Part shown: one piece after another, positions 3,835-45,778 of the stretch | Numbering within the stretch: position 1 is the first letter of the stretch | Layout of the letters: each line of letters starts with the position of its first letter | Assembly (NCBI RefSeq): GCF_022379125.1 | Contig: NC_061519.1 | Coordinates: forward strand, 24,047,101-24,111,100 | Length of the DNA: 64,000 nt | Source: Scophthalmus maximus | Lineage: Eukaryota | Direction: 5' to 3' | Notes under the pieces: generated by a model | The model's input: the letters and a program-made list of their open reading frames with translations, nothing else | Told to the model about the DNA's origin: nothing | Database searches by the model: none | Position numbers and translations under genes: made by a program

Positions 3835-4053
3835 ACCAAGTTTTACTGTCTGAGAGCAGATCTTCCTCTTGTATTTTGTAACAGGATTAATCTGGACCAT
3901 CTTCTTCAGGTCGACTTCGTAGGCCGACCCAGATCCCGGCGTCAGAGTGACCGAGGTTCTTCCCGAAGAGACGGCGGAGTCCAGCAAGGCGCAGTCAGAG
4001 GGCGAGTACGGTTCCCACTGTCCTTCATCCCCTTGCCACTGCCACACTGATCG

Positions 4054-4058
<5 letters not shown>

Positions 4059-4128
<70 letters not shown>
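4059..4128. repeat. (GA)35 microsatellite
   Basis: read directly. Confidence 0.95.
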
Positions 4129-4130
<2 letters not shown>

Positions 4131-9099: not shown

Positions 9100-9480
9100 T
9101 GCAAGAACCTTTCTTTCATTCTTTATTTATTTTATTTACTCTCTATATTTCTTTCTTTTACTTACTTTCTTTCTTTTTCTCTTCTTCTTACTTTCATTCT
9201 TTCTATCTTTCTTTCTTTCTTTCTTTCTATCTTTCTTCCTACGTTTCTGTCTTTTTCTGACTCACATTCTTTCTTCCTATCCTCCTATCTTTCTTTTTTC
9301 TAGCTTTCTTTCTTCCTATCTTTCTATCTTTTTCTGACTTACAATCTTTTGTTCTATCTTCCTTCCTATCTTTCTATCTTTTTCTTTCTTAGTTTCTTTC
9401 TATCCTTTCCTTACTTTCTTTCTTTCTTTCTTTATTTTTCATACTTTCTTTTTCTTACTTTCTTTCTTTCTTTCTTTTTT
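9100..9480. repeat. (CTTT)n / TTTC-rich low-complexity tract in mettl17 intron 8
   Basis: About 380 bp of ctttctttctttc units; it generates the spurious ORFs 9056..9337 and 9349..9546. Confidence 0.9.
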
Positions 9481-25033: not shown

Positions 25034-28000
25034 AATGTGATGAGGGGTTAAGACCGACTGACCTCTTCTTCTAGGACGGGGTGTCGTTCCTTCTCCGCGG
25101 TGTGTGTCAGATTCAAATATCCCCCTGGTGTTGCTCTACCGCTCCGTCCGTCTCCCACGGCGTCTCTTCTTTTTTCCCCCCTCGCATCTGTGATCTGGGC
25201 CCATAGTGCACTGATTCATGTCCTGCCCTCGCAGGCTGCAACACGCCGAGCGAGGGAGGGAGGGAGGGGGCAGCGGAGGCGCGTCCTCTCGCTCTATAGA
25301 CGAGCATCCTGAAGAAGAAGAAAAGTGACTCTGCGCAGTGGCATATGCATAATCAATATGTTAAGTACATTGAACACGGTGTACACATGATGGCTTTTTA
25401 TTTTTGTTTAAACAAATACGAATTCTTCCTCATCCTAATTTTTCGTGTCCAGAAGCACTTTTCACTCTGTGAGTCAGTCGTTGTTGCATCAGAATCACAA
25501 ATACTTTCATTAAATCACGGGGGGGGGGGGGGTTGTGTAACCTGAGGGGAAGGGATGAATGATTCAGAGGGTTTACACAAGCTCTGTCTGGGCTGTGTCC
25601 TAAGATGCAGGGTGCAAGCACACAGGGAAAAAAAAGAGAAAGAACAAAAGTCACGTTCACTAGTTGACACAAGCCTCTGACTCTGACAGGAATGTGAGAT
25701 GAGGTAGAAGCCCCGAAGCTGCCGCTGGCGCTCAGCGGCCGAGGGCAGGAGCAGCTTTTCGAAACACCTTCGTCCTTCCTGGGGAAGGTCTGCAAGAACG
25801 TGAAGGACCCTGGCCCACGCCTCGTTCACAGCGACGTCATGTCTCGGCACCAACGCAGCGTCACACTTACACACGTACACACGCCGGAGATTGACAGGGA
25901 TCTGTGTCCGACGCTGATCTGTGAAGCTGCAGCCAGAAAATCCAGTGGAGTGTTCTCCAAACTCTTTGTAATGGTCTGACTATACACAAAGTTTCCTTCA
26001 AACAGGGGTGTGTACGGGGCCACAGGCTTTTATGCTAACGCCCCTGGTTGCTATAGAAACATGTAAAAAATAAATAAATAAAGAAAAGTCGTTGCCTTGT
26101 TTGCTGGAGGCCGCTGGAGCTCCACGCCGGGCGGGAAGCACGAGATGAGAACGAAAAATCGTATTGTTTTTTTAGTTTTTTTCTTCCATATCTTATAGAT
26201 TTTAATTTAGATGCGAATGTTTCTCAGATGTGTCCCCTCTGAGCTGCTGAATGATTTCATGAACTCTTTTCTGAAACGTATTTTCGGTGTGTTATGAGAT
26301 GGCGGGCCATTATTCGAAGCACAAGTGTACTTTTGTCAATTCTTTTTTTTTTTTACTATTCACAGGGCATTTGTCAGTATCTCCATAACTTCAACAACTC
26401 ACGTGAAGGCGGAAGGGCTTTCCCGCCGGTGCTCCGTGTGAGAGAGAATATGAACAAAGTCACGTGACTGGGGGCAGAGGTCATCGCTGACGTTATGGTG
26501 GATGAAATGATTGAACACAAGATTGGATGATATGGCAATTTGGTTAGATTTAACTTTACTAATGATGGGCTCATCGTATTGATGCAGCCAACACAGCAAA
26601 AAAAGAAAAAGTTTATTTAGAGGCAGCACAGCCAAACGGGCGTCCTTAGATGTGACCCCTGTGAAAGGGTGTGTGGAGCCACCGAGGTCCTCCATCACGT
26701 CCACAGGGCCCACGAGTTCCATCCTTACATCAGCGTCTGGAGGTCAGAGACACAATCGTTTAATTGTGGTCTGTTTGGTTTCATGTGTTTTGGGGCTTTT
26801 TTGTGAGATTAACAATATTCATATATTTTTTGTCTTCGAGTGCGCAAAAGCAGGCTGATTGAATCCTTTTCTTTGGACCAAACTTTCTGATTGAACGTGG
26901 GTTTAACAGTCCTGTCACGGGCCAAGGATGAGGGATTTTTGTTGTTTCAATGTCAGAGCATTCAATTTATTCATCGCTATTGGTACATTACGAGAGGTTC
27001 AAGTAATATATGACCAAAAAAAAGTGCTTCCCAAAAATATCGCTTACCCCTCCAGTAATTATAAGCAGTTGAATAAGGGGTGGGAATTAATAAGCTTTGG
27101 CTTCCTCCTGCTCCTTTTCGGACATATATGATTTATTTAGCCATAAATATTGTTTATGACACTTTATAAACATTTAGTTTGTTTTTTTTGTATGCAGTGT
27201 CACACTTGCTCTTTTATTTGAATTTGTTCAAAAGAAAGTAGGAAATGTGACTCAAGGTTCATAAGGTTTTTCTTATGTTGATGCTTTCGTGTGTAAAATT
27301 GTCTGGACACTGATCAATATATCTTAAATCGTTGATGCGATGAGAGCTGAACACTAAATCGTGGTTCCAGTGGTTGGTGTTGCTGTCATTGTTTTGATTT
27401 GGCTCAACTGCTATTTTTGTTCAGCAATGTCCTGAATGAAGTTGGGTCACAATATTTTTCGATTTTGCAGCCACATGATGAATCTACCAGACTTCTCGGG
27501 CTTTGGACAGTTTGTCCCCAAGGTTAAAACAAAACAGTGAGAAGCAGTGTTCAGTTTTTCCACACCCCACATTACTGTATCGTTCTGCCTTTTATTTAAT
27601 TAAATTTGTGGCTGTTTAAAAAAAAAATATATATATATATATATATATTCCATTTCTTACAATATAAATCTCACTGCATTTAACCTTTTATTTTAATTTT
27701 ATTAGACTTTAGCCTTTCAAATTGTATATATTTCATCCGTCGTTAGGCACTTTTTGTGTGCAACATTTGTTGTAGTTCCTTGCTTGTCCAGTAGGTGTCA
27801 TGAAGAGAACGTGGGAAAGCACAAATGGGGGAAGTGGCGAACAGTCACAGGTGTGTTGCATACTGGAGTAACACGGTCACGTGGAGAAGACCGGACATTT
27901 GGCCATTGTTTAAATATATATAAGTCGTTTAAGTTATACAAGTTTACAACACCAGTGTAAGCCTCAGCTCTGAAATAATTCCCCTGCCCATAATGTGTCA

Positions 28001-28227
28001 AATGTTGTTTACTGTCTCTTTTGCTGTCGTTTGATAAAGAAACTTTGGGCGGAACCATGTCTCCTGCTATTTATTGTAACGAACCCGAATGACTTTGGGG
28101 TTGTTAGTACAGGTCTGAGGTAAGTGTTACAACCCCCCATGTCTTATCTTGGATCCTCTACAGAAGAGTATTAGGGCCAAGCATGAGGGGGAAGATTTAT
28201 TTTTTTAATGAGGGGGGGGGGGGGGGG

Positions 28228-28735
28228 ATTTTTTTATGATTCAACATTTCGAGAATAAAGTCGAAATAGCCCTGAACGACCGTGTTGTTGTTCCAGCTCA
28301 GCTGTCGCACATCCACGTTAACTAACGTTAGCAAAGCTACGCTAGCTCCGGTAACATCACGCCTCTCAAAATTCATGAACGGTTGTTTGTTTGCAATTGA
28401 ACGTTATCGTGTCAGGACACACGCTGGCGTTCATGTGCAAACACTCGTTGTCATCGCATCGTTTCTTTCAGATTCAGCCTGTCAATTATAATAATAGCGC
28501 AACTTTACAACTTGGTTAGCAGTTAGCGTTAGCTTAGCAAACTGGCTAGCAAAACGCCAACATCCGGTTGGTTGGAGCTGTGGAAAAGTGCTTCCGGGTC
28601 ACAATTTTCAACTTTATTCTCGAAGTAGTATTTTGTCCTTATTCTCGATATTTTGACTTTATTCTCGATATAGTTTTTCAACTTTACTGTCGACATTTTG
28701 ACTTTATTCTCGAAATTTAAATGACTGCCCCTAAC
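28228..28735. mobile_element. composite nonautonomous element: inverted termini TTTCGAGAATAAAGTCGAAA / TTTGACTTTATTCTCGAAA, internal tandem 19-20-nt subrepeats and a gctagc/gttagc core
   Basis: Left terminus atttcgagaataaagtcgaaatag (28237-28262). Right side carries 4 tandem units of tttgactttattctcga(a/t)a (28607-28720). It is flanked by poly-G (28213-28227). Confidence 0.45.
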
Positions 28736-31674
28736 ACACTTCCGTACTTCCGTATACTTCTATTTGGATCACCCTTTACTTGTCACTATGGTAACAACAC
28801 TGTTTTTGTCGTCCATGTTTTCTGAGCCTTGTAATTGTAATTTAAAGAAATTCAGGCAGATCACTTGAAATCCACGTTTTTCTTACTACGATCACATTTG
28901 ACCTGTGAAAAGGAAAGTGTGTTTATGCCTTTTAATAGTTGTTTTACAATACAAAATGCCAATTTCCCTTTTATTTTGCGGTTAGCATACTGGCGCTAGC
29001 ATTAGCGCGTTAGCTAGTTAGCTATCTATGTCTAACTTGGCCTGTTCAGTTCATGTGAGCACACGCAGACTTTTTTTGATGTGTTGTTGAGTGTTTATTG
29101 AACATTGAACTTGTTTATGGGGATATGATTATGCGTTACTGATGCAAGTTTATTTTTCTTCATTGCAGTTTTCACTCTGTCTATTGAACTCCTTTTGGAT
29201 TAAAGTTGATGGACGACAACTACTCTCCTCAGTCGTCAATGGAGGACTGCATAGCTGCGTCTGGGAAGCGGTGAGGGCAGAACAGTCTATATTAACAATA
29301 TGAAGATCTTAACAGACAGAGTGAATGTTGATGTGATTTGAATACACCAAATAAATACATTAAAAATTGTACAGTTCCAAATCGCCACACCATGAAAACC
29401 AAGAATATGATATACACAGTAAAAAGAAAAATCTTCATACATCTTCTTTTTTTTTTTTTTACATCAAAAAGTAGGGATTATTGTGTGACTATGGAAGCAA
29501 AACAGACTCGCAGCTCTGGCACTGCGGGGCCTCCAAGTAAGAGGAGTGGCAACCAACTGGCTGCTCTGGCTCCATCAGAGGCGGCGGCGATGCGGGGCCT
29601 CTTTCTATTTGCTAAATAGAAGTCAAATGTTAATCTGCTAAACAGGACAGAATAGAGAACGACTTCTGTCTTTTCTCCTCCTCACATAAACTGGAAATCC
29701 AGCAGGTCTTCCTGTGTGTCGAGCCCATCCATCACATCGCAGCAGCCCCTTTAAACAATTCTCTCGCCGTCCAACGCTGCAGTTTCCCCCAACTCCCCCC
29801 TACTGAACTTTCCAGTTCTACAACTGCTCCTGGGCCTGAACTACTGAGGATGTGCAGTCAGTACAGACGTGTTCCTCGGAGTCAAGATCAAGTTCAACCA
29901 GTAACAGAGGGATTCGCCGGTCCTGCAATTTGAAAAACTCACGAAAACATTAAAGAAATCTCTTATTTTTTGAATAGAGATTTAGATAAAGTCAAAGGCG
30001 GCTAAATCTGAAAGTGAATCCCTTTCTCCCCATTGTGGCTCTTCATCCTGCCAAAGCCAACACTATTCACACCAAAAGATGTTTTGAAAACAGAGCGGAT
30101 GAATCCGACCCCACGTTCAAGAATGGAGGAGGAAACTTAACTTTCCAAAACAATCGCATATATATATACGTATGTCTGTTCATATACAGACGAGGGGCTG
30201 TGAAAGCCAACTTTCTGTCACCTCTAACTTTCTTTGTTTTCATTTCTCTCTGACCTATCCCATAATAGGCTGCAGATGCTGCGACGAACATGTGTTATTT
30301 GTCAGACGACTGCGATTTTTGAAATGTTTAAATATCAAAATGGTGATTTTAATCCAAAATGTCGAAAGCAGCAGCACAGGAATCACTCTTCACCTGAGTA
30401 ATGTGGCATTTATGAGACGAAATATGATCGCTTTATTTAAAAAAAAATTTCTTTAGTTGTTTGACATAAAATGCACGTGGCGGTAAATTGAAGGTTCAGC
30501 TGGAGGTGATAGGGCAGAGGGGACAAAGAAAGCTGAGACTCAGACTGTAAACCAGGCGGCAATGTACATTTTTGTTTTCTGTCAAACAACAAAACTGAAG
30601 AAAAGTTTTAGCCATTTTCCAATTTATTTTTCTTTTTTTGTTTTGTCTTTTTCTCCCCCTTCCAAATTACTTGAAAAAGCTAAAAGGGTCGAACGAGGAA
30701 TCATAGAGCCAAGATGGCGGCGCACATGAGTGCAGCGGCTCTTTCTTTTCCAGGCTTTTTTGAGTGTTCTCTGATGTGCGAAGGCTTTGTGCTTTGCCAA
30801 GCAGGGGACATCTGCAGCTGTCAGGAATTGATCAAACCATGGAACTATGGCACTTTATATCCATTTGTTTTGTCTCATATTGCTCTTATCTCTGTGATGT
30901 ATTGTAGTGTAGTGTTATTTTTTCAACTTTATCATTTTAGATCTTAATGCGCCTTCCAGGTCACGGGCACAGTTCCTGTAATCTCCACTGGCTCATTCTC
31001 GTTTTCATCCAATCATAACCAGACACACACTTCTCTTGAAGCGAGCGTCGTGGCCCGTCAAAACCACAGTCAAATAAACGTCCACTCATAGTTCACTCAG
31101 CAAAAACGAGTGACCTGTGAGTGACCTCTCTCATCTCTGGGGAGTTTCAGAAGGTAACAAGATTTTTCAGATGTTAGCAACTCGAGAGCCGTCGTTGGAA
31201 GGGTGCTGGAGACGTTCGAAGATCCGACACTGATACCTTCAGTTTGGACGTGGTCTTGGACGTGAATTCGTGGGGTAATAATCAAAGCCAATAGCAAACT
31301 AAAGAGCAGCTGGCCGCCGCCCAAAAACGAAAAAAACTCCTTTTAAACCACTGGTATATAATAATTCGAACACAATTCACCCACTGAATATGTTATAATC
31401 TTCTAATGTCATTGTGGGATTTATTGATGGTGGTGACGGGTTTGGGCCTGAAGAATCTTGCATCAGTCCTGTTGGTAGCACTTTTTTTTCCCTCTCCCCA
31501 ACCAGACATGCAACATCTTGAGATGAGTCCCAGACCCGAGGCCTAACCACACAACCCCAGGAGGACGACGGGGAGAGCGAAACAAGCCCCCAGTTACTCG
31601 CCAGTATATCATGTGCCGGACGATTGTGAGAACCAGAGGAGGGCGAGGAAGGAGGATAGAGGGAAGAGGAGGGG

Positions 31675-31728
31675 TCGGAGGAGGAGGAGGAGGAGGAGGA
31701 GGAGGAGGAGGAGGAGGAGGAGGAGGAA
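31675..31728. repeat. (GGA)18 microsatellite
   Basis: read directly. Confidence 0.9.
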
Positions 31729-32100
31729 TTAGGAGAGAGACAGAGAGAGAGAGTGTGTTTATTGAAGTTTTTCGTCTCCTAACTCAGACAGAGAGCAGAC
31801 TGCAGAGGATAATGAGAAACAGATCTGTGGTGGGGAGAGAGAGAAAAGAGGGGAGGGGAGACTGGAGAGAAGGAGGGACGAGGAGGAGTCGGTGGGGAGA
31901 TGAGAGGAGGGAGGAGGAGTGGGGTTAAAAAAGGGAAGAAAAAAAGAGGAAAGGGGAGGAGAGGGAGCAGTGACAGCCCAAAAAAGGGGGGTAATGTGTT
32001 CATCACCACAGGAAATAGGCCCTTCTTATATGCAAGTAACTGACAGTAAGCGTCACAGCCCTGGTGGCCCTGCGGACGGACCGGCCTACAACGGAGACGG

Positions 32101-32156
32101 CATGAGTCCTTCTCATGAGTCCTGCTCATGAGTCCTTCTCATGAGTCCTGCTCATG
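32101..32156. repeat. 12-nt tandem repeat (catgagtcctkct) x 4.5
   Basis: read directly. Confidence 0.85.
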
Positions 32157-32317
32157 GTTGGGGGAACAATAATATACATGTATAGTTTTGGGAAAACCCC
32201 AAATGTGTGAAACAATTATTGATTCTGAGGATGACGTGAAGACAAATCCATAGGAAATTTAATGTTTGGATGCTGTGGAATAAGAGAGAACAGAAGTTTA
32301 AATTAAGTAAATGTTAA

Positions 32318-32780
32318 GTGAGTTTGGCTAAAAGAGAAACCTCCAGAGTGAGCGAGGAGGGGGCAGAGGAGGGAGAGGAGAGAGAGAGGGAGGAGGAGGG
32401 GGCGAGAGGAGGGAGAGAGAGAGGGAGGAGGAGGGGGGAGGGAGAGGAGAGAGAGAGGGAGGAGGAGGGGGCGAGAGGAGAGAGAGGGAGGAGGAGGAGG
32501 GGGGAGGGAGAGGAGAGAGAGAGGGAGGAGGAGGGGGCGAGAGGAGTGAGAGGGAGGAGGAGGAGGGGGCAGAGGAGGGAGAGGAGAGAGAGGGAGGAGG
32601 AGGAGGGGGGAGGGAGAGGGAGGAGGAGGGGGCAGAGGAGGGAGAGGAGAGAGAGGGAGGAGGAGGAGGGGGCCAGAGGAGAGAGGGAGGAGGAGGAGCA
32701 GGAGGGGGCGAGAGGAGAGAGAGAGGGAGAGGAGGGAGAGAGGAAGGAGGAGGGGGCGAGAGGAGGGAGGGTGGCGGTCA
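32318..32780. repeat. purine-only GA/GGA-rich tract of about 460 bp with roughly 60-bp periodicity
   Basis: Plus strand is almost exclusively G and A (gggaggaggagggggcgagaggagggagagagagaggg...). It generates mirror-image 186- and 188-aa low-complexity ORFs on both strands. Confidence 0.9.
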
Positions 32781-33360
32781 TGACTGACAGGCAGAACATC
32801 CTATGGGGAAAGAGTAACGGACCAACTGGAGCTGGGAAACCCACCCAGAGGCAATTAAGGGTAAAGGACGACAAAAATATTTGATAAACTTTTTCTCTCC
32901 CCCCTCCATCCCCCTCCCTCTGTCTCGAAGAAGAGGGACACGCTACAGGGACGATGACGATGATGATGATGATGGCGATGGAGCTGGAAGGAAGGAGGCG
33001 ACTTTATCTGGGAGTCATGTCGTTTCGGGAAAAGACTGTGATATCTCCCGAGCTGAGGATTTGATTTTGGACCGCAAGGCATCAAGTGTGGAGCGGGGAA
33101 GGAGGAGGAGGAGGAGGGGGGAGAAGAAGAAAGAAAAAGAAAAGTTGCAAAGATCCGATCACGTCAAGCAGATCGTGTGGAAGCAGCGTGGAGAAGTTGC
33201 CGGAGTTTGACACGGACGAAACCCTCCAAGGCGCGGAGACGTACTGCGCAATGCGCCGCGCGTAAAGACAAGGACTTTGGATAAAAGCTCTTTTTTCTCT
33301 CTCTTTTCTTCAAGAGACACAGAAGTCGCAGGGGTTGATAAGCGGGAGATAAGGGTGTAG

Positions 33361-33430
33361 ATCCCCCCCCCCCCCCCCCCCCCCCGTGTGTCTGCGTCTC
33401 TGCGTCTCTGTCCCCTGCTGCCGGAGGGCG
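33361..33430 (+). promoter_or_regulatory. nfatc4 proximal promoter / 5'UTR with a 25-nt poly-C run 46 bp before the ATG
   Basis: agatccccccccccccccccccccccccgtgtgtctgcgtctctg lies directly upstream of the CpG-island first exon. Confidence 0.45.
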
Positions 33431-33626
33431 ATGGGGGCCGCGCCGGGCTCGGGCTGGGAGGAGGGCGAGTTCGAGTTCAAGCTGGTGTTCGAGGAGGAGC
33501 CGCCGCCGCGGCCGAGCCAGGGGCCGTCGCCGGTGCGCACAGCCGAGCCGGAGAGCTCCGGTGCCGCGGAGGACCGCGAGGGCGCCCTGCTGCGCCTGGA
33601 GCCGGCCAGCGGCAACAGCAGCCTGG
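33431..33626 (+). CDS. nfatc4: nfatc4 coding exon 1
   Basis: Translation MGAAPGSGWEEGEFEFKLVFEEEPPPRPSQGPSPVRTAEPESSGAAEDREGALLRLEPASGNSSL. It sits inside a CpG island. The donor CTGG|GTCAGA is weak, so the 3' boundary is tentative. Confidence 0.7.
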
Positions 33627-33729
33627 GTCAGACGCGCCTCTCGGATTGGATGAATGTGTCTTGACGTGAAGCTCTCGAGTGACCGGGCGATGAAACTTCT
33701 GCGTGACTGTGTGTTGCAACGAGGGGCCT

Positions 33730-33939
33730 TCGTCCGCGTGTGTGTGTGCGTGCGTGTGTTTGTGTGTCTGAACTTGCATGTGTGTATGTGTGTGTGTGTG
33801 TGTGCGTGCGTGCGTGTGAACTTGCATGTGTTCTGTGCGTGCGTGTGTGTGTGTTAGTGTGTTTGAGAACTTGCATGTGTTCTGTGCGTGCCTCTTACTG
33901 CAAGAATGTGAGCACAAGTATATTTTTATTGTGTGTTTG

Positions 33940-33973
<34 letters not shown>

Positions 33974-34016
33974 ATGCAATTTGCCCTGTGCACATTACTT
34001 TTTCCTTGTTAGTGCA

Positions 34017-34062
<46 letters not shown>

Positions 34063-34075
34063 CGGCACCAAACGC
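33730..34075. repeat. cluster of (GT)n microsatellites in nfatc4 intron 1, then (CA)n at 34184-34220
   Basis: Several (GT)10-21 blocks are separated by short unique spacers. Confidence 0.9.
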
Positions 34076-34181
34076 AATGTGTTTCTAATCAGCTGTGCGT
34101 GTGAGTAGAGTTAACAGTTGCCATCTGGGTAGGAACCTCAACCTCTGTGTACTGAACCTCCATCTCCCATATTTTTCACTA

Positions 34182-34222
<41 letters not shown>

Positions 34223-35141
34223 CATGTCCTCACGTCCACCCTCTCGTTTGTTTCCCACCCTCACTGGCATACAAGTTGTATCACCACACCCAAGGCATGA
34301 AACTGAATTGCAGGAGGAAGGAGAGCGTTCCCTCACCCTGGGTGATTCAGTTTTTCACTTGTCAGATCATAAACCTTCACAAACGTTGATCCGAGTCTCG
34401 TGGCATCTCCCCCCACAAACACTGTGACACCACACCTGATATTAGATGGTACGTCCCCGGGCCTATATTCTCCACATCTATCGGAATAACATGCAAACGA
34501 AATATAGCAATGAGGACTTGACCACCTTGGTTATTGGCTGCATGTGTGAGCAGTTAAACTAAACTATAACTTTTAGAAGCCTGGAAGGATATATAGAAAT
34601 ATTCTGGATTTTATAATAATCCCACTTTTTCTTTCGTGAAATCTAAAAAATCTGCATGCAAATCACTGGAATCAAATTTTTGTCCGAGGCAGCATGAGGC
34701 CAGGGATTGTGGCTCGAAAAAACACCCACTTGGCAACAACGCTCCGACTTAATGAAGGTTAATTTATAGCAGAAACACCCAATTTTAAAACAACAGTAAC
34801 AAAAGCAAAATGTGTTTCATGTCACGGTTAGATACGCAATCGTCTTTGTAAGGTCGGCGTTGGCCCGAGAGACAGATTCAACAGTAATGAAGGAGAAATA
34901 AAAACTCAGGACACAGAGACTTCAAACTGTGTTCATCATCACCAGCTGTCTGGTAAACTTTGGTAGGAGCATTTCTAAGATTTAAAAAATTTGATTTTGT
35001 CCTCCATCCGTACGTGAGATGACTGAATTTCAGCAAGTCAAACTTTTTGTCTACCACTAGTCTCCTAAAGACTAAGGACACAGAATAAACAACACATTGG
35101 ACTTGAGAGACTTCTCCACGTGTCACGTGATCAGAGCTGCA

Positions 35142-35505
35142 ACAGCGAATCGATTGATCGATGAGTAACTCGATTAGTCGACCACTAAATTAATCGCCAA
35201 CTGTGTTGATAATCGATTCATCGGTTCGTTCAAGACGTTTTTATGATACAAAAAGTCAAAATCCTCTGATTTCAGCTACTTGAATGTGAATATTTCCTGG
35301 TTTCTTTGTGCCTTTATGACAGTAAACTGATTATCTTTGGTGTGTGGACAAAGCAAAACATCATCTTGGGGGTTTGGGGAAACATGATCAACATTTTTCA
35401 CCATTTTATGACATTTTACGGACCAAACAACTGATCAATTAATGGAGAAAAAAAAATATACAGATTAATCGATAATGAAAATAATTAGTTAGTTGCATCC
35501 CTACG
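35142..35505. mobile_element. MITE family B copy 1 (termini CAGAGCTGCAAC ... GTTGCA.CCCTA)
   Basis: cagagctgcaacagcgaatcgattgatcg ... taattagttagttgcatccctacg. Internal repeated aatcgattaatcg motifs. Confidence 0.55.
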
Positions 35506-35591
35506 TGAGATGTGTTTAAGAAAGCAAAGAAACAAACAAAAAAAAAACGTGCCAATCCTCTGCTGGTCTGTATTTGAACGTGTAAATGATC

Positions 35592-35770
35592 TTAAAGGGG
35601 CAGTCAGCGATTCTGAAGCGATACACGTTTTGTAAAAAAAATCAGCAAATATTTTCTCACCGTTCGTTAGCTGTCGCTGTTGTGTGTGCGCCAGAAATAA
35701 ATCGGGGGTTTTATGGCGGCAGCCCAGGCTCCGTAAAACAAAAAAAAATAGTGCTCACTGCCCCTTTAAC
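35592..35770. mobile_element. MITE family A copy 2
   Basis: cttaaaggggcagtcagcgatt ... gctcactgcccctttaac, in nfatc4 intron 1. Confidence 0.6.
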
Positions 35771-38349
35771 AGGAAAGACTGAAGAATAGATGAAATTAGC
35801 TATTAATACACAATATTTCTTTTTCCTGATTGTTGAGCTTGTGAATCATCTCACCACAGCTCATCAGATTTATCCCTCGAGCACTCGAGGGGTCCTGACC
35901 TCCAGGTCAATCTGCTTCCATCACTGCAATCAACATCTGCATTTTTACTTATTCAGAAAGAAAACACAAACATCTGAAAATCATTTGGCAAGGTTTTATA
36001 AAAACTTGATGGATTTCACCGTGATGCATCTCAACTTGTAAACACACAATCTTCTGTGTAAAATTGTACGTTTCCGTCACTGTTTAGTTTTGAATCTTTG
36101 ACAAATGACGCAAACTTAGTTTTTTGTTTTTATCTTTTCTTGCGACGTGTGGCTTCTTACACCTCCTGCATAATGTTCAAACTATTTGTTTGTATTAATA
36201 ATACTGTATATACGTGCAAACGTAACTACAACAGAAAAAGTCAGCAACTTCTAATTATCGCTCGTTCGACGAATGTCAAGATGAGGCGTCCCACTACTGT
36301 ATGATTAATCGTAGCCAGCAGCAGAATTAAAAGCTGCTTCGAAGCTGAAGATCATTTCTTTTTTTTTACCGACCGGTTTTTATGACATGGACACACTCCT
36401 CAATTTCATTATAGAACCCTGTAGTGTCATATGGGGATGTAGATAATCAGATTATGCCCATTTCAAAATGCCTCAGATTCATTTTTCCTCCCTCCGTGGG
36501 GGTTGGCAACCATTGACTGGAACATCTCTCTCTCTCTTGTTCTGATTTTTTTGAGGTTCAACTCAGGACACACAATAAAATATTACCGTGCACTCGATTT
36601 GTTCGACTTTAGATGAGATTTTATTGTGCTCAGCGAGTGTTTAGGTAACTTGTCTTGGCTCCAACCCCGCTGGTCGGTGTACACACTGGTCTAAAATCTT
36701 GGTTTTTCGAGTGAAAAGCCGTCCACCAGCGGAGGAGTGGCCTCGGCGCTGCAGCTTTAATCACTTGGAAATATTCTTTGTTGCCAGGAAACATTTGAAG
36801 AGGGTTTTTTTTTCACAACCAACTCTTAATTTGCTGGCAGTTGCTATTGTGTGTCCGCGTTGCCCCAAATTTTTTTTGCCGGCATGGGCCTGCCGCCATG
36901 CGCTGCAGCGCAACAATGACCAATTTGGAGCCTCGCTCATTACAGGGTAAACTACCGTTTGGCTCCGTGTGGAGGCCGACCGCACGACGCTGGGGAAGTG
37001 TTGTGGCGAGGACGCTGGTTTCCAGCGGTTGTGGTTATTTGGTTGTTTGCAATCCATGAACTTTTTGTTGAGAAAGTTGAAAGGGAACCTAGAGAAGCCC
37101 CCAAATCATCTTCATCACTGTCCAGTGAAGAGCAGCAGGGGTTGGCTTTGCGAGATTTGACACAGATGTAAACTTCATGATTTGGTTAGGATTGAAATTT
37201 TTGAAGTGATTTGGCACATTTACTTTGATGTGAGTCAAGGTTTTTATACATCAGAATGAACTCTTTGAGATCATACGAAGCACAAAAGCTCCCCCTTAAT
37301 AAGAATGTAAGGTTTGTCCTCTCTGGGCTCCGGTAGAAACATTGAGGTGCGACTTGGCGTCTGTACATACAATGTTCATGTACACGGCTCGTTCTGAGGC
37401 GATAAGAACAAAAGTATACTTAGTTTCAGGTGATAATAAACTGATGAAAATATTTTTATGAATATGACATTTGATATCTGTCCATAGATCCCACTAAATC
37501 CTTCACACTGGTCCTTTAATATCCATATCATTCAAAATATGGCATCATAACCTAATGTTATTTATTCAACATTTTTGTTGTTTGTAATAATCAAATGAGA
37601 AATGCAGTGTGAATTTGTAGTGGTGCTGTTAGGCAGACTTTATAACCTTTTGACAGAAGGCTAACGGTTTCCCCCGTTTCCAGCCTTTGTGCTAAGCTAA
37701 GCTAACCGGCTTCTGGCTCTGGCGTCATATTCACATTAAAGTGACAACAATGAAACACTTCCTGCTTTTTTCCACTTGGTAACAATTACTGACTATAAAA
37801 AAGTCAGACTATAAAGTAAAATGAATGTGTAGATTACGCAAAAATGTAGCTTTACTTTCCACAAATTTGTGTTTACAATATTTTTTGATTGATATCTAAG
37901 GAGTCTTTTTGAAAGTGCCACATATAAAAGAACAAAGAACAGCCGGTTTTCCAGGACTAACTGTCATCGCATGGTTGTGGAAAAAGATCAGTGCGAGGTC
38001 ACATGACCCCCAGAACCCACAACATGTGATATGAAATGAAGGGTGTTTGAAGAAGGAAAATTTGAGGGGTTTTTTTTCTTCTCTTACGGTAAAGCAGCCA
38101 GAAAATAAATAGCTGCCTTGTGGAAGTAAAGGTGAATATTAGGGTATTACAATTTACACTTTTTGTTAGCGGCCTTTGAATATTTATTTATTTATAATTT
38201 TTTGTGAATTACACCAAGATCTGTCCACAGATATTATACAAATCAGAAACTGCCCTCCAGTATATTCAGTCTGCTCTCTGAACCTGAACTGTTCCCTCTC
38301 TTCATTTTCTAAATCATATATATATATAAACATATATATATATATGTAT

Positions 38350-38377
38350 ACACACACACACACACACACACACACAG
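38350..38377. repeat. (CA)14 microsatellite, about 65 bp before nfatc4 exon 2
   Basis: read directly. Confidence 0.9.
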
Positions 38378-38442
38378 CCAGTGTTGGTGTTGTCCATGTT
38401 TCCTCAAATTCAACTGTCGTTTTCTTTGTTCATTATTTTCAG

Positions 38443-38609
38443 TAACAGACAACCACTCGGCTTCCTCTCATGCAGTTCACCCAATCTGCATCCCCAGCCC
38501 GCCTCCCTCGGCCAGTCAGCGGGCCGGGATGCATTCCCCGCCTCCGAGAAGGGCCCAGGTCAGGGAGTTCAGCGGGACCTACGAGAGCCTGCCAGCGCGC
38601 TCTGTGCAG
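38443..38609 (+). CDS. nfatc4: nfatc4 coding exon 2
   Basis: Acceptor tcgttttctttgttcattattttcag|; translation TDNHSASSHAVHPICIPSPPPSASQRAGMHSPPPRRAQVREFSGTYESLPARSVQ; human has IGIPRPPPPRPGMHSPPPRPAPSPGTWESQPARSVR; donor CAG|GTGAGA. Confidence 0.8.
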
Positions 38610-39203
38610 GTGAGACAACCTGTTCACACACCCTGTTATACTCAAACTGTTTGAACGTAAAACCACTTTATAGTTTTGCTTGAAATGTGCAGCTGTTCAG
38701 TGGCTTCATCATGCAGCAGCAGTTCCTGTTCCCAGTCGCATTAATTCATGATCATAATTTAAATGATTTAAAGTATTGAGGCAGCTAAATGCCGGCTGAT
38801 AGAATGTCCCTTTTACTTTTTGTTTAGACCACTGACAATGAACTGTGACAGATCTGCAACTATTGATGTCTTTCGTTTGCCGTTCGTTGGTTTCTTTAGT
38901 CTATGTTAGAAAACAGTAAATCATGTCTTGCACAATGTTCAAGAGCCCGAGGTGACGTTTAATGCCTTTTTTTTTCCAAACGACCGTCCAAATCCAAAAG
39001 GTTCAAGTAATGAAATACAGGAAAGAAGTAAAATCCTTAATCCGAGAAGCTGGGAAAAAAGCTGAAATATTTAGCATTTTGGCTTGATGGATAATTTGGA
39101 CAATTATGTGATGATTAAATCTTTTGTCATTTCCTGTCTTTTGATTGAGAGACGACACTAGGAGAATAAAGTATTCCCTCCCTCGCTCTGATCTTCCGTT
39201 CAG

Positions 39204-39719
39204 GTTTCAGAGTCTCGTGTGGTCGAGTGTCCAAGCATCCAGATAACCACCATCTCCCCGGAAGACGACGCAGCACCCACCATTTCCAGCTACTGGGACA
39301 TGGGTGGCGGCGGCGGTGGGTGGGACCGAGAACGCCTCTACCTCCCCCTGCTGGACCCCTTTTCCTACCGTGAAAGATGCCCGGGCTCCCTCAGCCCCAG
39401 CCCCGCCTCCAGCCCCTCCTCCCGCGGCTGGCTCAGCCCCGCCTCCAGCTGCGACTCCCTGCTGGTCGAGGAGGACGAGCTCAACGAGGCCGCCATCAAT
39501 TTGGGGCTCTCGCCGTCGTCAAGGCCCACTTCCCCCGGGGGTAAAAAGCGCAGAAACTCCCCTCTGGCCTCCCCCTGCACCTCGCGGAGGGGCAGTTACT
39601 CAGAGGAACTGCAGGGTTACAACCTGGAGGGCGGAGACTCCAACCCTCAGTCGCAAGCTCCGCCCGGCAGCTGTGAGCTCAGCATCCCGCAGAAAACCAG
39701 GAAGACGTCATTGGAGCAG
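39204..39719 (+). CDS. nfatc4: nfatc4 coding exon 3 (regulatory domain: PxIxIT site, SP repeats, NLS)
   Basis: Translation VSESRVVECPSIQITTISPEDDAAPTISSYWDMGGGGGGWDRERLYLPLLDPFSYRERCPGSLSPSPASSPSSRGWLSPASSCDSLLVEEDELNEAAINLGLSPSSRPTSPGGKKRRNSPLASPCTSRRGSYSEELQGYNLEGGDSNPQSQAPPGSCELSIPQKTRKTSLEQ; donor CAG|GTAAAG. Confidence 0.88.
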
Positions 39720-39793
39720 GTAAAGACGCCCGTTTGGTTTTTGTGGCGAAGTATGTCAATTGCGGCGGTGAACGTCACTGTTTTGTCGTCCAG

Positions 39794-39969
39794 CTGTCGT
39801 CCAGGGAGGTGGATCAGGAGCAGGCTCCGGGCCACAGCTCCCCCTGCCCGCCGCCAGAGAGCCAGCAGACCAGGAGAGAGCCCCCTCCGCTGGGCATGGA
39901 CTACCTCTCTGTGCCCCCTGCCCTGGCCTGGGGCCGGACCCGGGCCAGTGCCCACAGCCCTCTGTTCAG
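39794..39969 (+). CDS. nfatc4: nfatc4 coding exon 4 (follows a 74-nt intron)
   Basis: Translation LSSREVDQEQAPGHSSPCPPPESQQTRREPPPLGMDYLSVPPALAWGRTRASAHSPLF; human has MDYLAVPSPLAWSKARIGGHSPIFR; donor AG|GTGAGG. Confidence 0.85.
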
Positions 39970-40235
39970 GTGAGGACACGCGTAGGCAACATCTACTCTA
40001 CTGGTACGACAAAGATTTATATTCATTCAACCAAATGATAAGACAGATTTCAAAAGCTGATCCTTTCACTGACAGCGTGCTGTGTCACGCACCTGTCATG
40101 TTTGCATGTGTAAATTACATGTAAATCTCATTTATTCCTCCACGAAATAGTTATTCACATGCGTCTGCTGTGCCTCTCAGCACTCACCGAGTAAAAAAAA
40201 AACCCTCGGTCTAATAATTGTCCAACCCGACGCAG

Positions 40236-40398
40236 GTCCAACGCGCTGCCGCCACTCGACTGGCCGCTGCCGTCCCAGTTCGACCAGTACGAGCTGCGCA
40301 TCGACGTGCAGCCGCGCCCACACCACAGAGCCCACTACGAGACCGAGGGCAGCAGAGGAGCCGTCAAGGCTGCGCCGGCGGGACATCCTGTCGTCAAG
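40236..40398 (+). CDS. nfatc4: nfatc4 coding exon 5 (start of the Rel homology region)
   Basis: Translation [55 protein letters not shown]; donor AAG|GTGAAG. Confidence 0.92.
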
Positions 40399-40589
40399 GT
40401 GAAGCGCAAACCTTGCAGTAACACACGGGACAGAGAAACAAAATTACATTCACTTTAATTTCAAATCAAGCTTACTTATAAATAATTCTGGAACCAAAAG
40501 TCTTCACACGGAGGTTGCGGCTCACTGCTGTTGACCTCCTCATGCCGGTCGGATCTTAAACCTCTGACACTGAGTCTCTCTCCTCACAG

Positions 40590-40690
40590 CTGTGTGGATA
40601 CACGGAGAGGAAACCGCTCTCTCTGCAGGTTTTCGTTGGAACAGCTGACGACAGATCCATCCGGCCGCATCCTTTCTATCAGATACACAG
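40590..40690 (+). CDS. nfatc4: nfatc4 coding exon 6
   Basis: Translation [33 protein letters not shown]; donor AG|GTACTG. Confidence 0.9.
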
Positions 40691-41099
40691 GTACTGAATC
40701 GCTTTTCAGCAAGTCAAACTTCTTTCCGAGTGTCCCTCTGTCGAGACACAACATAGTGTATATCAACGGGACGCATCGTGTGATCACTGTGGCTGCATCT
40801 ACCACCAGCTGCTTTTTGTGCTGTTTGAGTTGGATGCTTTTTTTGCAGCAGTCATTGTCAGTGTCAGAAGAAAAGCATCAAGAGTTTGTTAGATTCTTCT
40901 TCTCATCTTGTATCTTGGGGCATCTGTGAGATATTCTGTGAGCATCAACAGGATGTAATTAGTTTGTATTTGAAAATATTCAACGGATCTGGACAGTTCC
41001 GTTTCCAATGTGGATGTAATTTGGCTTTGGAGGAATTTGGATGTCTCTTTACTGGATTCAATCAAATGTAGCAACAATAAATAAAATAGCAGAATAGCA

Positions 41100-41170
41100 G
41101 TGCATATCACCCGGGCGCGAACATGGTCACCTTGAGCAGCAGGCCCTGGTTCGACTCCCGAGTGGTTGGA
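41100..41170. repeat. tRNA-derived SINE-like fragment
   Basis: gcaggccctggttcgactcccgagtggttgg contains a B-box GGTTCGAnTCC. Confidence 0.35.
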
Positions 41171-41275
41171 CCCTTAACCGCGTGTCTCTCACCTTGTTTC
41201 CTGTCTCTCCTTCAAAATTTCACAATACACATACATAAGTTTAAGGGCTGCAGCTATTGATTAAGTTAAAGGGGC

Positions 41276-41663
41276 AGTAAGCGATTTTTAATCCTGATAC
41301 ACTTCTGGTAAAATTCAGCAAATATTTCCTTGCGGTCAACTAGCTGTCCGTTCTGTGTGTGCGCTGAAAAAAGATCCATGTTTTTTCGGCTCAGTCCTGG
41401 CTCTGTAAATCGAAAACAAAAGAAATGGGCACAGTTTGTAAATATCACTTGCACCACGCCTTAAGGGACTAGCTGGTGCTAGAGACAACCTTTCTCCAAA
41501 ATAGCTCACTGCCCCTTTAAGAGACGTGCTGGCGTCAACCGCTACGGTTTTAGCGTGTCCGAGTCCCATACCCAAGGTCGCGGGTTTGAACCCCAATCAC
41601 TGCGTTCAGAAAATCAACATTGAACAATCTTTCTCCAAAATAGCTTAATGCCCCTTTGATTAA
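41276..41663. mobile_element. MITE family A copy 3: a duplicated 3' terminus enclosing a tRNA-like module (41521-41625)
   Basis: ttaaaggggcagtaagcgatt ... ctttctccaaaatagctcactgcccctttaa, then ggtcgcgggtttgaacccc (B-box-like), then a second ctttctccaaaatagcttaatgcccctttga. Confidence 0.5.
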
Positions 41664-41909
41664 AGATTAATCTATCAGTTATTTTTTATCTATAAAATAT
41701 GTGGGGGGAAAAAAGGCCATCACACTTCCCAGACCCCAAAGAGACAAGTTTGTTTTGTTGTAAAACCAGCAGCTACAGTCGAGGGGCTTTAACCATCACA
41801 TGATCACCGGCCTCGACCATCTCAGGGCTGCGATTCGTGGATTTAAAAACAACAACCATCAACCTGTAACTGGAGGCGTGTGACGTTTAGCCTGTTTCTG
41901 TCCCGGCAG

Positions 41910-42011
41910 GGTGACGGGGAAGATGGTGGGCACTGCCAGTCATGAGAGCGTTCAGGCCGGGACCAAGCTGCTGGACATCCCCCTCAACCCAGAGAACAAC
42001 ATGACTGCACT
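41910..42011 (+). CDS. nfatc4: nfatc4 coding exon 7
   Basis: Translation [34 protein letters not shown]; donor CT|GTGAGT. Confidence 0.9.
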
Positions 42012-42871
42012 GTGAGTAAATGTTTCCTCCACATGCCCACAAATTAAGTTCTTCTCTTTTTTATAATCCAATTTCCAAAGCAATTTTTTAAGGCCAGTAC
42101 AGCACACTATATGTTTGAGGCTAATTATTCAGATTCCTTTTTACTGGGCCAGTGTGGCTTAACGTCAACCGCTTAGCCATGGTGGAAAGTACAATTTTGC
42201 ATTTTCTGCAACTTTATACTTGTACTCCACCTCATTTTAAGCGAAAACATTATGTTTTTTAACCCCACAATGTTTTATTTGACATGTTGAGCCCTTTGTA
42301 GATTAAGACTCTAATATTTGGATTTTGTAAGATTTTTCATAAAAAGAACAGATGTTATATATGTATTAAGACCGTAAGATTGTTTGACATTAATTAACAC
42401 AATGTGGTTTGTTAGCTGCTCAAGTAAAGAATGGTTTTCTCTCTAAATTTCCCAGATTTCTTTTGTTTAAAATAATTGCAATTATTAAAAATTTTATATC
42501 AGGGAAAAAAATCCAAAATATGAATATACATTTATGTATCAGCACCATTCTTTCTCCTTCTGTCCTTCTTATCTCTCCCATTAATCATCTCATGACCCCT
42601 CAGATTTATGCTGTGACCCTTGGAGGGGCCCAATCGGCCAAACTGCTCACACACTGATCACGCATCGATGTTAACCATCAAATAATGTCAGATATAATAA
42701 TATATGACATTTTATCTCACAACAATTCCTTGACAGTTCAAGTTGAAAAATAAAACTGAGTAGTGTTTTCTTCCACCGCTCCTGCCGATAACCAGCGTGC
42801 AAAGTACCAAACCTCGACCGAGCGGCGGAGCCTTCCCTGGATAAATGTAAATGTAAACTCTTCTGTCGTAG

Positions 42872-43059
42872 CATCGACTGCGCCGGGATCCTGAAGCTGA
42901 GGAACTCGGACATCGAGCTGAGAAAAGGGGAAACGGACGTCGGCAGGAAGAACACGCGCGTTCGCTTGGTGTTTCGTACCCACCTCCCTCTGGCGCCCCC
43001 TGTGGCGCCGCCTGGCCGGGTCCTGGCTCTGCAGGCTGCCTCGCTGCCCATCGAATGCT
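42872..43059 (+). CDS. nfatc4: nfatc4 coding exon 8
   Basis: Translation [63 protein letters not shown]; donor T|GTGAGT. Confidence 0.92.
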
Positions 43060-43597
43060 GTGAGTCGATGGTCACATGTTCGTTTTTCAACTTTCGTACA
43101 ATCTTGACATTTTTATACATTGTTAGAAAGCTTTCCTGATTCTGTCTGTGTAAAACATTTTAGGATTCTCATGTCACTGCATTCACCGTTGATACAGAAT
43201 TGGTTATGGCTGCAGAAAGTTTTCCACAGGAGAGACACTATTGGAGGCCTCATATTCCAATTTTTATACGAAAAAAATGTCTTCAATATTCTTTTTCCAT
43301 GTTTTTATGCCCCTGAAAACTTGGTTCAGTATCTCATATACTCATTCTGACTTTTTGGTTGTACATTTTAAGTGTTGATTTTCAAAGCAACACCAGAGAT
43401 GTGACTGACCTCTAAATGTTTGAAGAACAGCAACCTCTTTTATTTTGGCTACATTTTTTTTCAGTCGAGGGGAGCAACAAAACAAATAGTCGAGCAATTG
43501 TTTCCGTTCTACTGCAAACAGGCTGTAGATTATGATGATATTTACCGGTACTGAAGATGTTTAATTTGCCAGATTCTTTTCTCCCTCCCTCCCTCAG

Positions 43598-43738
43598 CCC
43601 AGCGTTCGGCCCAGGAGCTGCCCGTCATCGAGTCCGTCAGTCTCACTTCCTGCTGTGTGGAGGGCGGAGAGGAACTTCTGCTGAGTGGCACCAACTTCCT
43701 GCCGATCTCCAGGGTTCTTTTCATGGAGAGGGGGACAG
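43598..43738 (+). CDS. nfatc4: nfatc4 coding exon 9
   Basis: Translation SQRSAQELPVIESVSLTSCCVEGGEELLLSGTNFLPISRVLFMERGT; donor G|GTAAAT. A one-base indexing discrepancy in this interval between my reading and the ORF track means the start may be 43597. Confidence 0.85.
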
Positions 43739-44876: not shown

Positions 44877-45003
44877 TGTTTGTTGTGCGTGAGAGTTCCC
44901 GCCTACAGCGACCTGTCCGTCAGTCGGCCCGTGTCGGTCAGCCTGTACGTCTCCAACGGGAAGAGGAAGAGAAGCAGCACTCACTGCTTCAAGTATCTGC
45001 CCA
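44877..45003 (+). CDS. nfatc4: nfatc4 coding exon 11
   Basis: Translation CLLCVRVPAYSDLSVSRPVSVSLYVSNGKRKRSSTHCFKYLP; donor A|GTGAGT. Confidence 0.9.
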
Positions 45004-45778
45004 GTGAGTTTCCTCCCTTCTCACCTGATTCTGCTCGCAGCTCATGTGTCATGGTGGATTTCAGATTTGGGAGACAAAGTCGAAAGGTTGATTTTCCTCC
45101 TGTGGTGACAGAACCATCTCTGACCTTTAGACACCTGAACAGTATGATTTTTTTATGTACATTCACAGGAATTAGTGATGAATTTACTCACGTATTGACA
45201 TGTAACATCAAATATATTGTTATGTAAATACAATACATTATAACATGCATATTTATTTATTTATTTTAGAATATACCGTTTTTTAAGTTTATTTCTTATA
45301 ATTGCACTTCCTGAACTGTACCTCAATATTTTCTGGGTACCGTTGCAATTGTTCAAAGCATCCAAACGTGAAATGTGAAACTTGGACAGATGTGATGATC
45401 ACTGTGTTCAATATTAATTTGATTTAATCGTAATTGTAGAGCATATTTTGTCAAACTAAAAAATGGTACATGTTCATATTCCCAAAACGAAGGTATTAAC
45501 AAAAAGTAAGCACGTTATGAGGAATCATATTTGCAGTCATGTTAAGAAACTAAAACAAATGACAGCCTTAATTCTGTGAGGAAATATTTTCTCATTTTCA
45601 TTAGATTCATAGAAATGTTTCGAAATCTGTTCCTCTCTGGAATATCTCAATCCAACATTTATTTACAGAATACTCGGCTTACTCTTTTTTTTTTATTAAT
45701 GAGAAAAAATATATAAACAATATTAAATTTTACTAAAACTCAATGTAAACACATATTGTTTTCTGTTTTTCCCCGGAG

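Follow-up and report, generated by a model that had tools for sequence, protein, structure and literature searches.

A purine-rich minisatellite upstream of nfatc4 in turbot, derived in place from a motif present once in other fish

Vertebrate genomes commonly carry purine-rich tandem repeats in the neighbourhood of promoters. The GA and GGA repeats found in such positions are born of slippage, and their copy number varies between individuals and between species. The NHE III1 of c-MYC is a proximal and functionally mapped element of about 30 bp, whose G-rich purine strand has the potential to form both H-DNA and G-quadruplexes (G4).

Human PKD1 contains in intron 21 a lineage-specific polypurine tract with consequences, the PyRE, which is missing from mouse Pkd1 (PMC11667243). 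The PyRE is 2.5 kb long and carries 23 perfect mirror repeats, and its triplex formation and replication stalling are supported by experiments. The formation of H-DNA requires a homopurine-homopyrimidine mirror repeat (PMC11667243; PMC12887540), and one change that breaks the symmetry is sufficient to abolish it (PMC11667243). The orientation of such sequences also matters, as a G-rich homopurine tract placed on the non-template strand blocks transcription in vitro (PMC3561996). At the Hox clusters, GA repeats associated with the GAGA factor ThPOK/ZBTB7B act as enhancer blockers, which have been defined by histone depletion, factor ChIP and enhancer-blocking assays (PMC3639804). Here we describe a GA-rich tract located upstream of the nfatc4 gene of the turbot (Scophthalmus maximus), and compare it with these systems.

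Anatomy of the tract and identity of the adjacent gene

The tract (431 bp; G 281, A 134, C 13, T 3) is 96.3% purine on the plus strand, with G contributing 65% and A 31%, and its purine strand is the sense strand of nfatc4. The best segment with a purine content of at least 90% extends from 32354 to 32771 (418 bp), and the perfect purine runs within the tract are 38-68 nt long. The tract forms the purine maximum of the window, i.e. of the whole 64-kb stretch of DNA that was analysed (0.9725 over 400 bp, where the 99.9th percentile of the deviation from 0.5 is 0.451), with a binomial tail of about 1e-101. The original prediction described the region 32318-32780 as nearly all G and A; this is true of the tract itself, but its start had been placed about 27-35 bp too early, and the positions 32318-32344 are occupied by mixed sequence, which is conserved in other fish. 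The coordinates of the tract and of the neighbouring features are collected in Table 1.

Table 1. Features of the region upstream of and including the start of turbot nfatc4 (positions in the window)
Feature	Position	Strand	Evidence and remarks
Conserved purine-rich non-coding block	31440..32080	+	About 75% identity among percomorph loci; holds ancestral 30-79-bp purine run
(GGA)17 microsatellite, exact	31677..31727	+	Inside degenerate GAG/GA repeat 31636-31753; (GGA)9 in L004
13/26-bp tandem repeat CATGAGTCCTKCT	32101..32156	+	4.3 copies here, 3.3 in second turbot assembly
Conserved left flank of ancestral seed (..TAAGTAAATGTTAAGTGAGTTTGGCTAAAAGAGAAACCTCCAGAGTGAGCGAGGA)	32296..32344	+	Aligned to L005, L006, L007, L008
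GA-rich degenerate minisatellite	32345..32775	+	Base counts, TRF, unit cutting
Conserved non-coding element directly 3' of tract (TCATGACTGACAGG...GGGAAACCCACCCAGAGGCAATTAAGGGTAAAGGACGACAAAAATATTTGATAAAC)	32776..32900	+	About 530-650 bp upstream of ATG
CpG-rich block: putative promoter/5'UTR and exon 1	about 32900..33830	.	GC 0.50-0.77, CpG obs/exp 0.66-1.21
50-nt perfect purine run including (GGA)5	33095..33144	+	Inside CpG-rich block
C23 homopolymer	33363..33385	+	45 nt between run and ATG 33431; N + about C14 in L004
nfatc4 exon 1, coding part (MGAAPGSGWEEGEFEFKLVFEEE...)	33431..33626	+	GT donor at 33627; ortholog Lates japonicus NFATc4

The internal organization of the tract was examined with TRF, which described it as 6.0 copies of a 66-bp period (83% match, score 516) and also reported a period of 135. 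Cutting at the runs of G5-6 divided the tract into 12 units of 23-48 bp each, the elementary unit being about 34 bp. The units open with G5-6, usually followed by C, and their consensus is approximately GGGGGC(G)AGAGGAG(G)GAGAGGAGAGAGAGGGAGGAGGA. The tract had been predicted to be periodic, which it is, and the proposed period of roughly 60 bp can be refined to a higher-order period of the 34-bp unit. The head-to-tail arrangement of copies with a unit size between 10 and 100 bp places the tract among minisatellites, as does its within-species length variation, the latter being judged from two turbot assemblies only, with assembly error possible.

The 3' end of the tract is located 655 bp upstream of the nfatc4 ATG and about 125 bp upstream of the CpG-rich block. 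The tract lies between a minus-strand LTB4R-like gene and the plus-strand nfatc4. Both long ORFs that had been reported across this region (32314..32874 on the minus strand and 32318..32884 on the plus strand) were found, and their interpretation as low-complexity artefacts was confirmed: a Pfam scan of the two gave no match, and five of the six frames are free of stops inside the tract because of its composition (lack of T, or of A). Searched against Rfam with gathering thresholds, the whole window gave no hits. Copies of the tract were also sought elsewhere in the window, where the only matches were to GA/GGA low-complexity sequence at 31635-31925 and 4060-4128. Origin of the tract as a dispersed or transposon-borne element was rejected, given that there are no dispersed copies in the window and that the flanks are colinear with those of the orthologs. 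The window also contains a (TTTC)n-like tract of about 400 bp, as well as (GA)34 at 4061-4128.

The identification of the downstream gene as nfatc4 proved correct. Its exon 1 MGAAPGSGWEEGEFEFKLVF matches proteins named NFATc4 in Lates japonicus and Sphenodon, and the exon-1 ORF shows 99% identity to a Scophthalmus maximus protein. Later exons of the gene begin at 38506 and 39211, a Pfam match to RHD_dimer is located at 44880-45227, and in a second turbot assembly (L004) an RHD_DNA_bind gene lies downstream. The upstream minus-strand neighbour is closest to leukotriene B4 receptor 1 (E 4e-33), and further upstream there is an SDR39U1-like ORF with DUF1731; on human 14q12, too, NFATC4 has these genes as neighbours. 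The N-terminus, the regulatory region, the Rel homology domain and the synteny all agree with this identification. One GenBank annotation divides nfatc4 into two gene models which, together with the spurious ORFs of the tract, is a warning for the annotation of this locus.

The predicted CpG-rich 5' end of nfatc4 was also supported, since every 200-bp interval between about 32900 and 33900 passes the CpG-island thresholds (length of at least 200 bp, GC of at least 0.5, obs/exp of at least 0.6). The contrast of this block with its surroundings is moderate, the CpG obs/exp of the entire window being already 0.74. A literature search for studies of fish nfatc4 promoters gave nothing relevant.

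The same region in other fish and in a second turbot assembly

The comparison set comprised 14 nfatc4 loci of fish other than turbot; judged by the protein of exon 1, they form eight groups. The loci used were those of Xenoophorus captivus (L002), Lates japonicus (L006) and Synaphobranchus kaupii (L016), and of the read-archive assemblies L005, L007-L014 and L017-L019. None of the 14 contains the expanded tract, not even those in which ltb4r and nfatc4 are arranged as in turbot, and the term turbot-specific is used here in the sense of absent in the sampled non-scophthalmid fish. A locus which is closer to turbot by exon-1 identity (L015, 88%) extends only 375 bp upstream, short of the site in question.

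In seven of the eight groups the position of the tract is taken by a single G-rich seed of about 50 bp, located at the 5' margin of a strongly conserved non-coding element (in Lates the seed reads GAGTGAGTGGGGAGGGGGGGAGAGGAGGGAGGCTGGAGGTTGGGCAGGGGGGATTCATGACTGACAG). The eel-lineage locus, that of Synaphobranchus kaupii, has kept only the core of the conserved element and has no seed. Upstream of exon 1 the percomorph loci are colinear with the window, in the form of blocks corresponding to 31440-32080, 32296-32375 and 32730-33090, followed by exon 1. In L002, L005-L014 and L017-L019 the alignments of the left flank end at 32373-32410 and those of the right flank start at 32716-32778, and the two alignments share 14-46 bp of the subject sequence in most of these loci. 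It follows from this overlap that one seed corresponds to the first as well as to the last unit of the turbot array, so that the unit present 12 times in turbot occurs once in the other species. The turbot array is thus lineage-specific and originated in place from a single-copy seed, of which the last 15 bp or so (TGGGCAGGGGGGATT) are missing in turbot.

Conservation in this region concerns the single-copy seed and its flanks, and does not extend to the array itself. Most columns of the approximately 125-bp element 32776-32900 are at least 90% conserved among the nine sequences covering it, and its core GGCAATTAAGGGTAAAGGACGA is kept at 87.7% in Synaphobranchus kaupii; the element is found about 500-600 bp from the ATG in all species. 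Within 2 kb upstream, the longest segment with at least 90% purine measures 418 and 369 bp in the two turbot assemblies versus 30-79 bp in seven other loci, where these runs form part of the conserved purine block of older origin, at about 820-980 bp upstream and away from the site of the tract. The original prediction proposed to examine whether a GA tract is conserved upstream of nfatc4 across fish; it is not, as the alignment shows at most one seed of about 50 bp. Absence from related genomes or haplotypes had been named in the original prediction as an observation that would speak against it; here the outcome is mixed, the tract being absent from 14 of 14 non-turbot loci but present in both turbot assemblies. 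The eel-lineage locus has a GA-rich tract of its own, of about 190 bp, in intron 1.

The second turbot assembly, GCA_006346445.1, was aligned to positions 27627-43700 of the window, with 98.7% identity. In both assemblies the tract occurs at the same place and with the same unit structure (369-418 bp), and in L004 it is about 34 bp shorter net (24, 8, 3 and 1 bp missing, 2 bp gained). Out of 66 mismatches in the 16 kb compared, 17 fall within the 431 bp of the tract, as do five of the 16 indel events; the density of mismatches is 3.9% inside the tract versus 0.31% outside, which represents a 13-fold difference. All indels of at least 3 bp across the 16 kb are located in tandem repeats. These observations bear out the proposal of a polymorphic site, as the tract, the GGA run and the C run all differ in length between the two assemblies. 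The differences may partly reflect sequencing or assembly error instead of polymorphism, because L004 has N's by homopolymers, and because non-B motifs have been studied for their effect on polymerisation speed and error rate in long-read sequencing (bioRxiv 10.1101/237461).

Two simple repeats in the vicinity of the tract had been noted before as (GGA)18 at 31675-31728 and as C25 at 33361-33385, 46 bp before the ATG. Both runs exist, with the lower copy numbers, the narrower spans and, in the case of the C run, the slightly different distance listed in Table 1. Neither is present in the orthologs checked, in which the position of the C run reads GATTGTATCACTGTATCCTGTCC. The window contains 12 poly-C/G runs of 10 nt or longer, the C run among them, against 0.025 expected by composition. 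These 12 runs were considered as a possible repeat family, which was rejected as they have no flanks in common, and their excess looks like a property of the genome or of the assembly and not like a feature of nfatc4. This, together with its turbot-specific occurrence, removes the grounds for regarding the C run as a special feature of the promoter. Moreover, a spliced, cDNA-like contig of another fish (L003) has a 5'UTR of at least 224 nt, which makes it probable that the C run (-45 to -68 from the ATG) is transcribed as part of the 5'UTR and does not belong to the promoter. The (GGA)17 and C23 runs are simple repeats that expanded independently in turbot, in the same general manner as the tract, which thus has several turbot-specific expansions around it within the same 2 kb.

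Origin of the array and its possible influence on nfatc4

Taken as a whole, the data are best explained by a turbot-lineage-specific, mutation-prone purine-rich minisatellite, which expanded in place and is neutral or only weakly and passively acting; we assign to this reading a probability of roughly 0.75. Its source is a short G-rich motif (about GGGGGnAGAGGAGGGAGG), found once in other teleosts at the 5' edge of the conserved element, at a distance of about 0.5-0.6 kb from the start codon of nfatc4 on its upstream side, and amplified in tandem at this very site. The amplification, for which replication slippage or unequal exchange is the likely mechanism, inserted about 370-400 bp between two conserved upstream blocks and replaced the missing end of the seed mentioned above. 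The differences between the two turbot assemblies suggest that the expansion is recent or still ongoing.

The array is absent outside turbot and varies between the turbot assemblies, and a conserved sequence-specific function is therefore unlikely. The most probable effect on nfatc4 would be none at all, or one that is weak and passive. Such an effect could be exerted through altered spacing, through the presence near the promoter of a stiff, G-rich stretch which is unfavourable to nucleosomes and prone to non-B structures, or through the multiplication of GAGA/MAZ-type sites. A cis-regulatory consequence of the expansion may nevertheless be envisaged, considering that the seed and both flanks are conserved and that the tract adjoins an element conserved throughout teleosts; the element 32776-32900 is more likely than the tract to be the real regulatory sequence. 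We regard as very doubtful the more far-reaching idea that the expansion and the loss of about 15 bp of the seed rewired nfatc4 regulation in turbot or scophthalmids, with the length alleles serving as a tunable “knob” on expression. If true, such a knob would operate by excluding nucleosomes, by forming G4 or triplexes, or by multiplying the binding sites of MAZ/GAGA type.

The alternatives to a largely passive minisatellite ascribe to the tract either an active role or no real existence. As a functional cis-regulatory GA array, it would be a nucleosome-excluding or insulator-like sequence bound by GAGA-type or G-rich-motif factors (ThPOK/ZBTB7B, MAZ, VEZF1), which would shield the nfatc4 promoter from the divergent ltb4r-like gene or keep this promoter open. 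The position of the tract between these two oppositely oriented genes, directly 5' of a conserved element and on the site of a seed that is itself conserved, fits such a role, and so does the presence of 14 GGGAGG motifs and of 46 overlapping GAGAG pentamers in 431 bp, a number which is trivial given the composition. By analogy, the histone-poor, GAGA-factor-associated GA-repeat enhancer blockers of the mouse Hox clusters (PMC3639804) might provide a precedent, and both H-DNA and G4 motifs have been reported to disfavour nucleosomes (PMC12887540, PMC11667243). We nevertheless consider this role unlikely, since none of the 14 non-turbot loci has the array, even where the ltb4r/nfatc4 arrangement is the same, it differs in length and sequence between the two turbot assemblies, and its expansion took out a part of the conserved seed. 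It is scarcely credible that the tract arose as an artefact of assembly or sequencing, or that it represents a low-complexity coding exon. Low-complexity sequence is error-prone, the assemblies differ in detail and long ORFs run along both strands; however, both assemblies agree on the place and the unit structure of the tract, whose ORFs owe their length to composition and have no Pfam match. A coding exon was also rejected on the grounds that the tract precedes the conserved start codon and does not appear in the spliced contig L003.

A further alternative is a non-B element, i.e. an intramolecular triplex and/or a G4 array, controlling transcription in a supercoil-dependent manner as in the c-MYC NHE III1. 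With 96.3% purine over 431 bp and perfect purine runs of up to 68 nt, the tract has one strand that is nearly all purine, as H-DNA demands. Perfect mirror arms, 10-12 nt long and separated by 1-8 nt, occur at about five centres (e.g. GAGGAGGGAGAG-A-GAGAGGGAGGAG); they reach the usual minimal threshold for such motifs, and arms of 12 nt are found once per unit in some of the units. The number of overlapping mirror matches (arm of at least 10 nt, spacer of at most 8 nt) is 16, versus a mean of 5.5 in shuffled sequences, of which 3% reach 16. In a gapped alignment the tract is 89% identical to its own reverse over 393 columns, about 6 SD above the shuffles, and this long-range symmetry reflects the periodic arrangement of roughly symmetric units. 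However, the longest perfect arm (12 nt) does not exceed what composition-matched shuffles give (mean 11.7), and the long arms without gaps are mostly at shuffle level; a single break of symmetry abolishes H-DNA (PMC11667243). The tract had been described as a long mirror repeat able to form triplexes; the first part of this description applies only when gaps are allowed, and the second is weakened accordingly by perfect arms of at most 12 nt. As formal H-motifs, the pure (GGA)17 and, at 4061-4128, (GA)34 surpass the tract. The H-DNA potential thus seems modest, a by-product of composition and not a sign of design.

Similar considerations apply to G4. The mean G4Hunter score of 1.56 places the tract among sequences classed as G4-forming (at least four runs of three or more G with short loops, or a score of at least 1.5), and it contains one PQS with loops of up to 7 nt (32605-32642) and four with loops of up to 12 nt; the single-copy seed of Lates has a canonical PQS as well. 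In G4-aware ViennaRNA folding, for which the DNA-set G4 parameters are approximate, the native order gave -209 versus -262 +/- 29 for the shuffles, i.e. the weaker structure. The idea of an optimised G4 array was rejected on this basis, and the G4 potential is best regarded as a by-product of 65% G, because shuffled sequences are predicted to fold more strongly than the native one. The G-rich strand is the non-template strand for nfatc4, the orientation associated with transcription blockage, and this would be relevant only if transcription entered the tract from upstream. Furthermore, interruptions of the (GGA)n type do not stop transcription in the way that pure GAA repeats do (PMC11667243), and the array is not conserved. 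A dedicated non-B element at this site is therefore highly improbable, and we return to the passive minisatellite as the preferred interpretation.

Relation to known systems

The tract adds one more example to a well-known class of sequences. As it stands it matters little, being a repeat of a common kind which is not conserved. It does, however, offer a clean example of a minisatellite whose single-copy ancestral seed is visible in related species, and, in a species used in aquaculture, it is likely to provide a marker of variable length at a distance of 0.65 kb from nfatc4.

Its closest relatives are the GA-rich and GGA repeats of vertebrate promoters, with which it shares a tandem, purine-only and length-variable structure in the neighbourhood of a CpG-rich promoter. 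Unlike these repeats, it is built of a long unit, about 34 bp, which forms higher-order periods of 66 and 135 bp, it is degenerate (83% match), and its ancestral single-copy seed can be identified in other species. The tract resembles the GA-repeat enhancer blockers of the Hox clusters in being intergenic and GA-rich, in separating differently oriented genes and in containing many GAGAG motifs (PMC3639804). The latter were defined by functional and chromatin assays, whereas the turbot array is known from its sequence and is not conserved.

With the PyRE of PKD1 intron 21 it has in common the character of a long composite tract of purine/pyrimidine bias, made of many short mirror repeats and capable in principle of forming both triplexes and G4. 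Lineage specificity is another shared feature, as mouse has no PyRE and other fish have no counterpart of the turbot tract, and both loci display local instability. In contrast to the intronic PyRE, the turbot tract is only 0.43 kb long, is located upstream of the gene and has perfect arms of only 12 nt. Like the NHE III1 of c-MYC, it presents a G-rich purine strand with H-DNA and G4 potential upstream of a promoter. What could be compared with NHE III1 at this locus, though, is only the conserved single-copy seed of other fish, and not the array into which this seed has grown in turbot.

Conserved non-coding sequence upstream of nfatc4

We identified a non-coding element adjoining the GA-rich minisatellite (the tract) which is highly conserved in every percomorph nfatc4 locus compared, and whose core, GGCAATTAAGGGTAAAGGACGA, is retained even in Synaphobranchus kaupii, a representative of the eel lineage. 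The element is located at a constant distance (~500-600 bp) from the nfatc4 ATG. Its sequence includes a kappaB/NFAT-like string, GGGAAACCC, as well as CAATTAAG and TGATAA. This element may be the true proximal regulatory element of nfatc4, or its TSS region.

A second conserved block shows ~75% identity across percomorphs and includes an ancestral purine run of 30-79 bp, recognisable in S. kaupii too. Because this run has been kept, the purine bias upstream of nfatc4 must be considered old, whereas the long tract is not. The S. kaupii locus also carries GA-rich sequences of its own, namely a tract of ~190 bp (opposite strand) in nfatc4 intron 1 and a stretch of ~75 bp immediately 3' of exon 1. 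The turbot tract is orthologous to neither of them.

Features and their positions (window coordinates unless a locus is named; L016, S. kaupii nfatc4 locus; L004, nfatc4 region of the second turbot assembly)
Feature	Position	Remarks
Conserved non-coding element	32776-32900	~125 bp, directly 3' of the tract
Second conserved non-coding block	31440-32080	purine-rich on sense strand
S. kaupii GA-rich sequences	L016 10607-10804 and 6161-6238	
Poly-C/G runs	7692, 10561, 16528, 21828, 25519, 28212, 33363, 48833, 54626, 57795, 58241, 58421	
(GT/TG)n microsatellites	33738-34061	nfatc4 intron 1
13/26-bp tandem repeat	32101-32156	CATGAGTCCTKCT
(TTTC)n-like tract	9100-9480	~400 bp
Perfect (GA)34	4061-4128	
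WWE-domain ORF	3721-4140	minus strand
MARVEL-domain ORF	55029-56450	minus strand
Additional nfatc4 coding exon	38506-38612	
Split nfatc4 models	L004 10001-10234 and 15063-20234	

Homopolymer runs and other repeats

Homopolymer runs of C or G, 10-32 nt long, occur 12 times in the 64 kb, where base composition predicts 0.025, and no flanks common to these 12 runs were found. Three of them could be compared between the two turbot assemblies and all three were unequal in length (G14 vs an N-gap plus G20, G16 vs G11, and C23 vs N plus C14); in the second assembly N's adjoin two of the three. The runs represent either a genuine genome-wide class of poly-C/G microsatellites in turbot, or a weakness of sequencing or assembly.

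The assemblies also differ in the 13/26-bp tandem repeat (4.3 copies vs 3.3 in the second assembly) and in one of the intron 1 microsatellites, which is shorter by 30 bp in the latter. A degenerate (TTTC)n-like tract (86% pyrimidine on the plus strand) is a second long purine/pyrimidine-biased tract, and such tracts are therefore not rare in the window. The best formal H-DNA mirror repeat of the window is the perfect (GA)34 (arms of up to 33 nt), which adjoins the edge of the WWE-domain ORF.

Coding sequences and gene models

A MARVEL membrane domain (E 1e-22) was detected in a single uninterrupted ORF of 473 aa. In nfatc4, we found an additional coding exon that separates exon 1 from the large exon of the regulatory domain; it is used in L003, a spliced, cDNA-like contig from another fish. 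In GenBank, nfatc4 of the other turbot assembly is annotated as two separate models, a "hypothetical protein" of 77 aa that corresponds to exon 1 and an RHD protein of 809 aa; the same annotation contains a doubtful 113-aa model, whose end corresponds to window position 33210.
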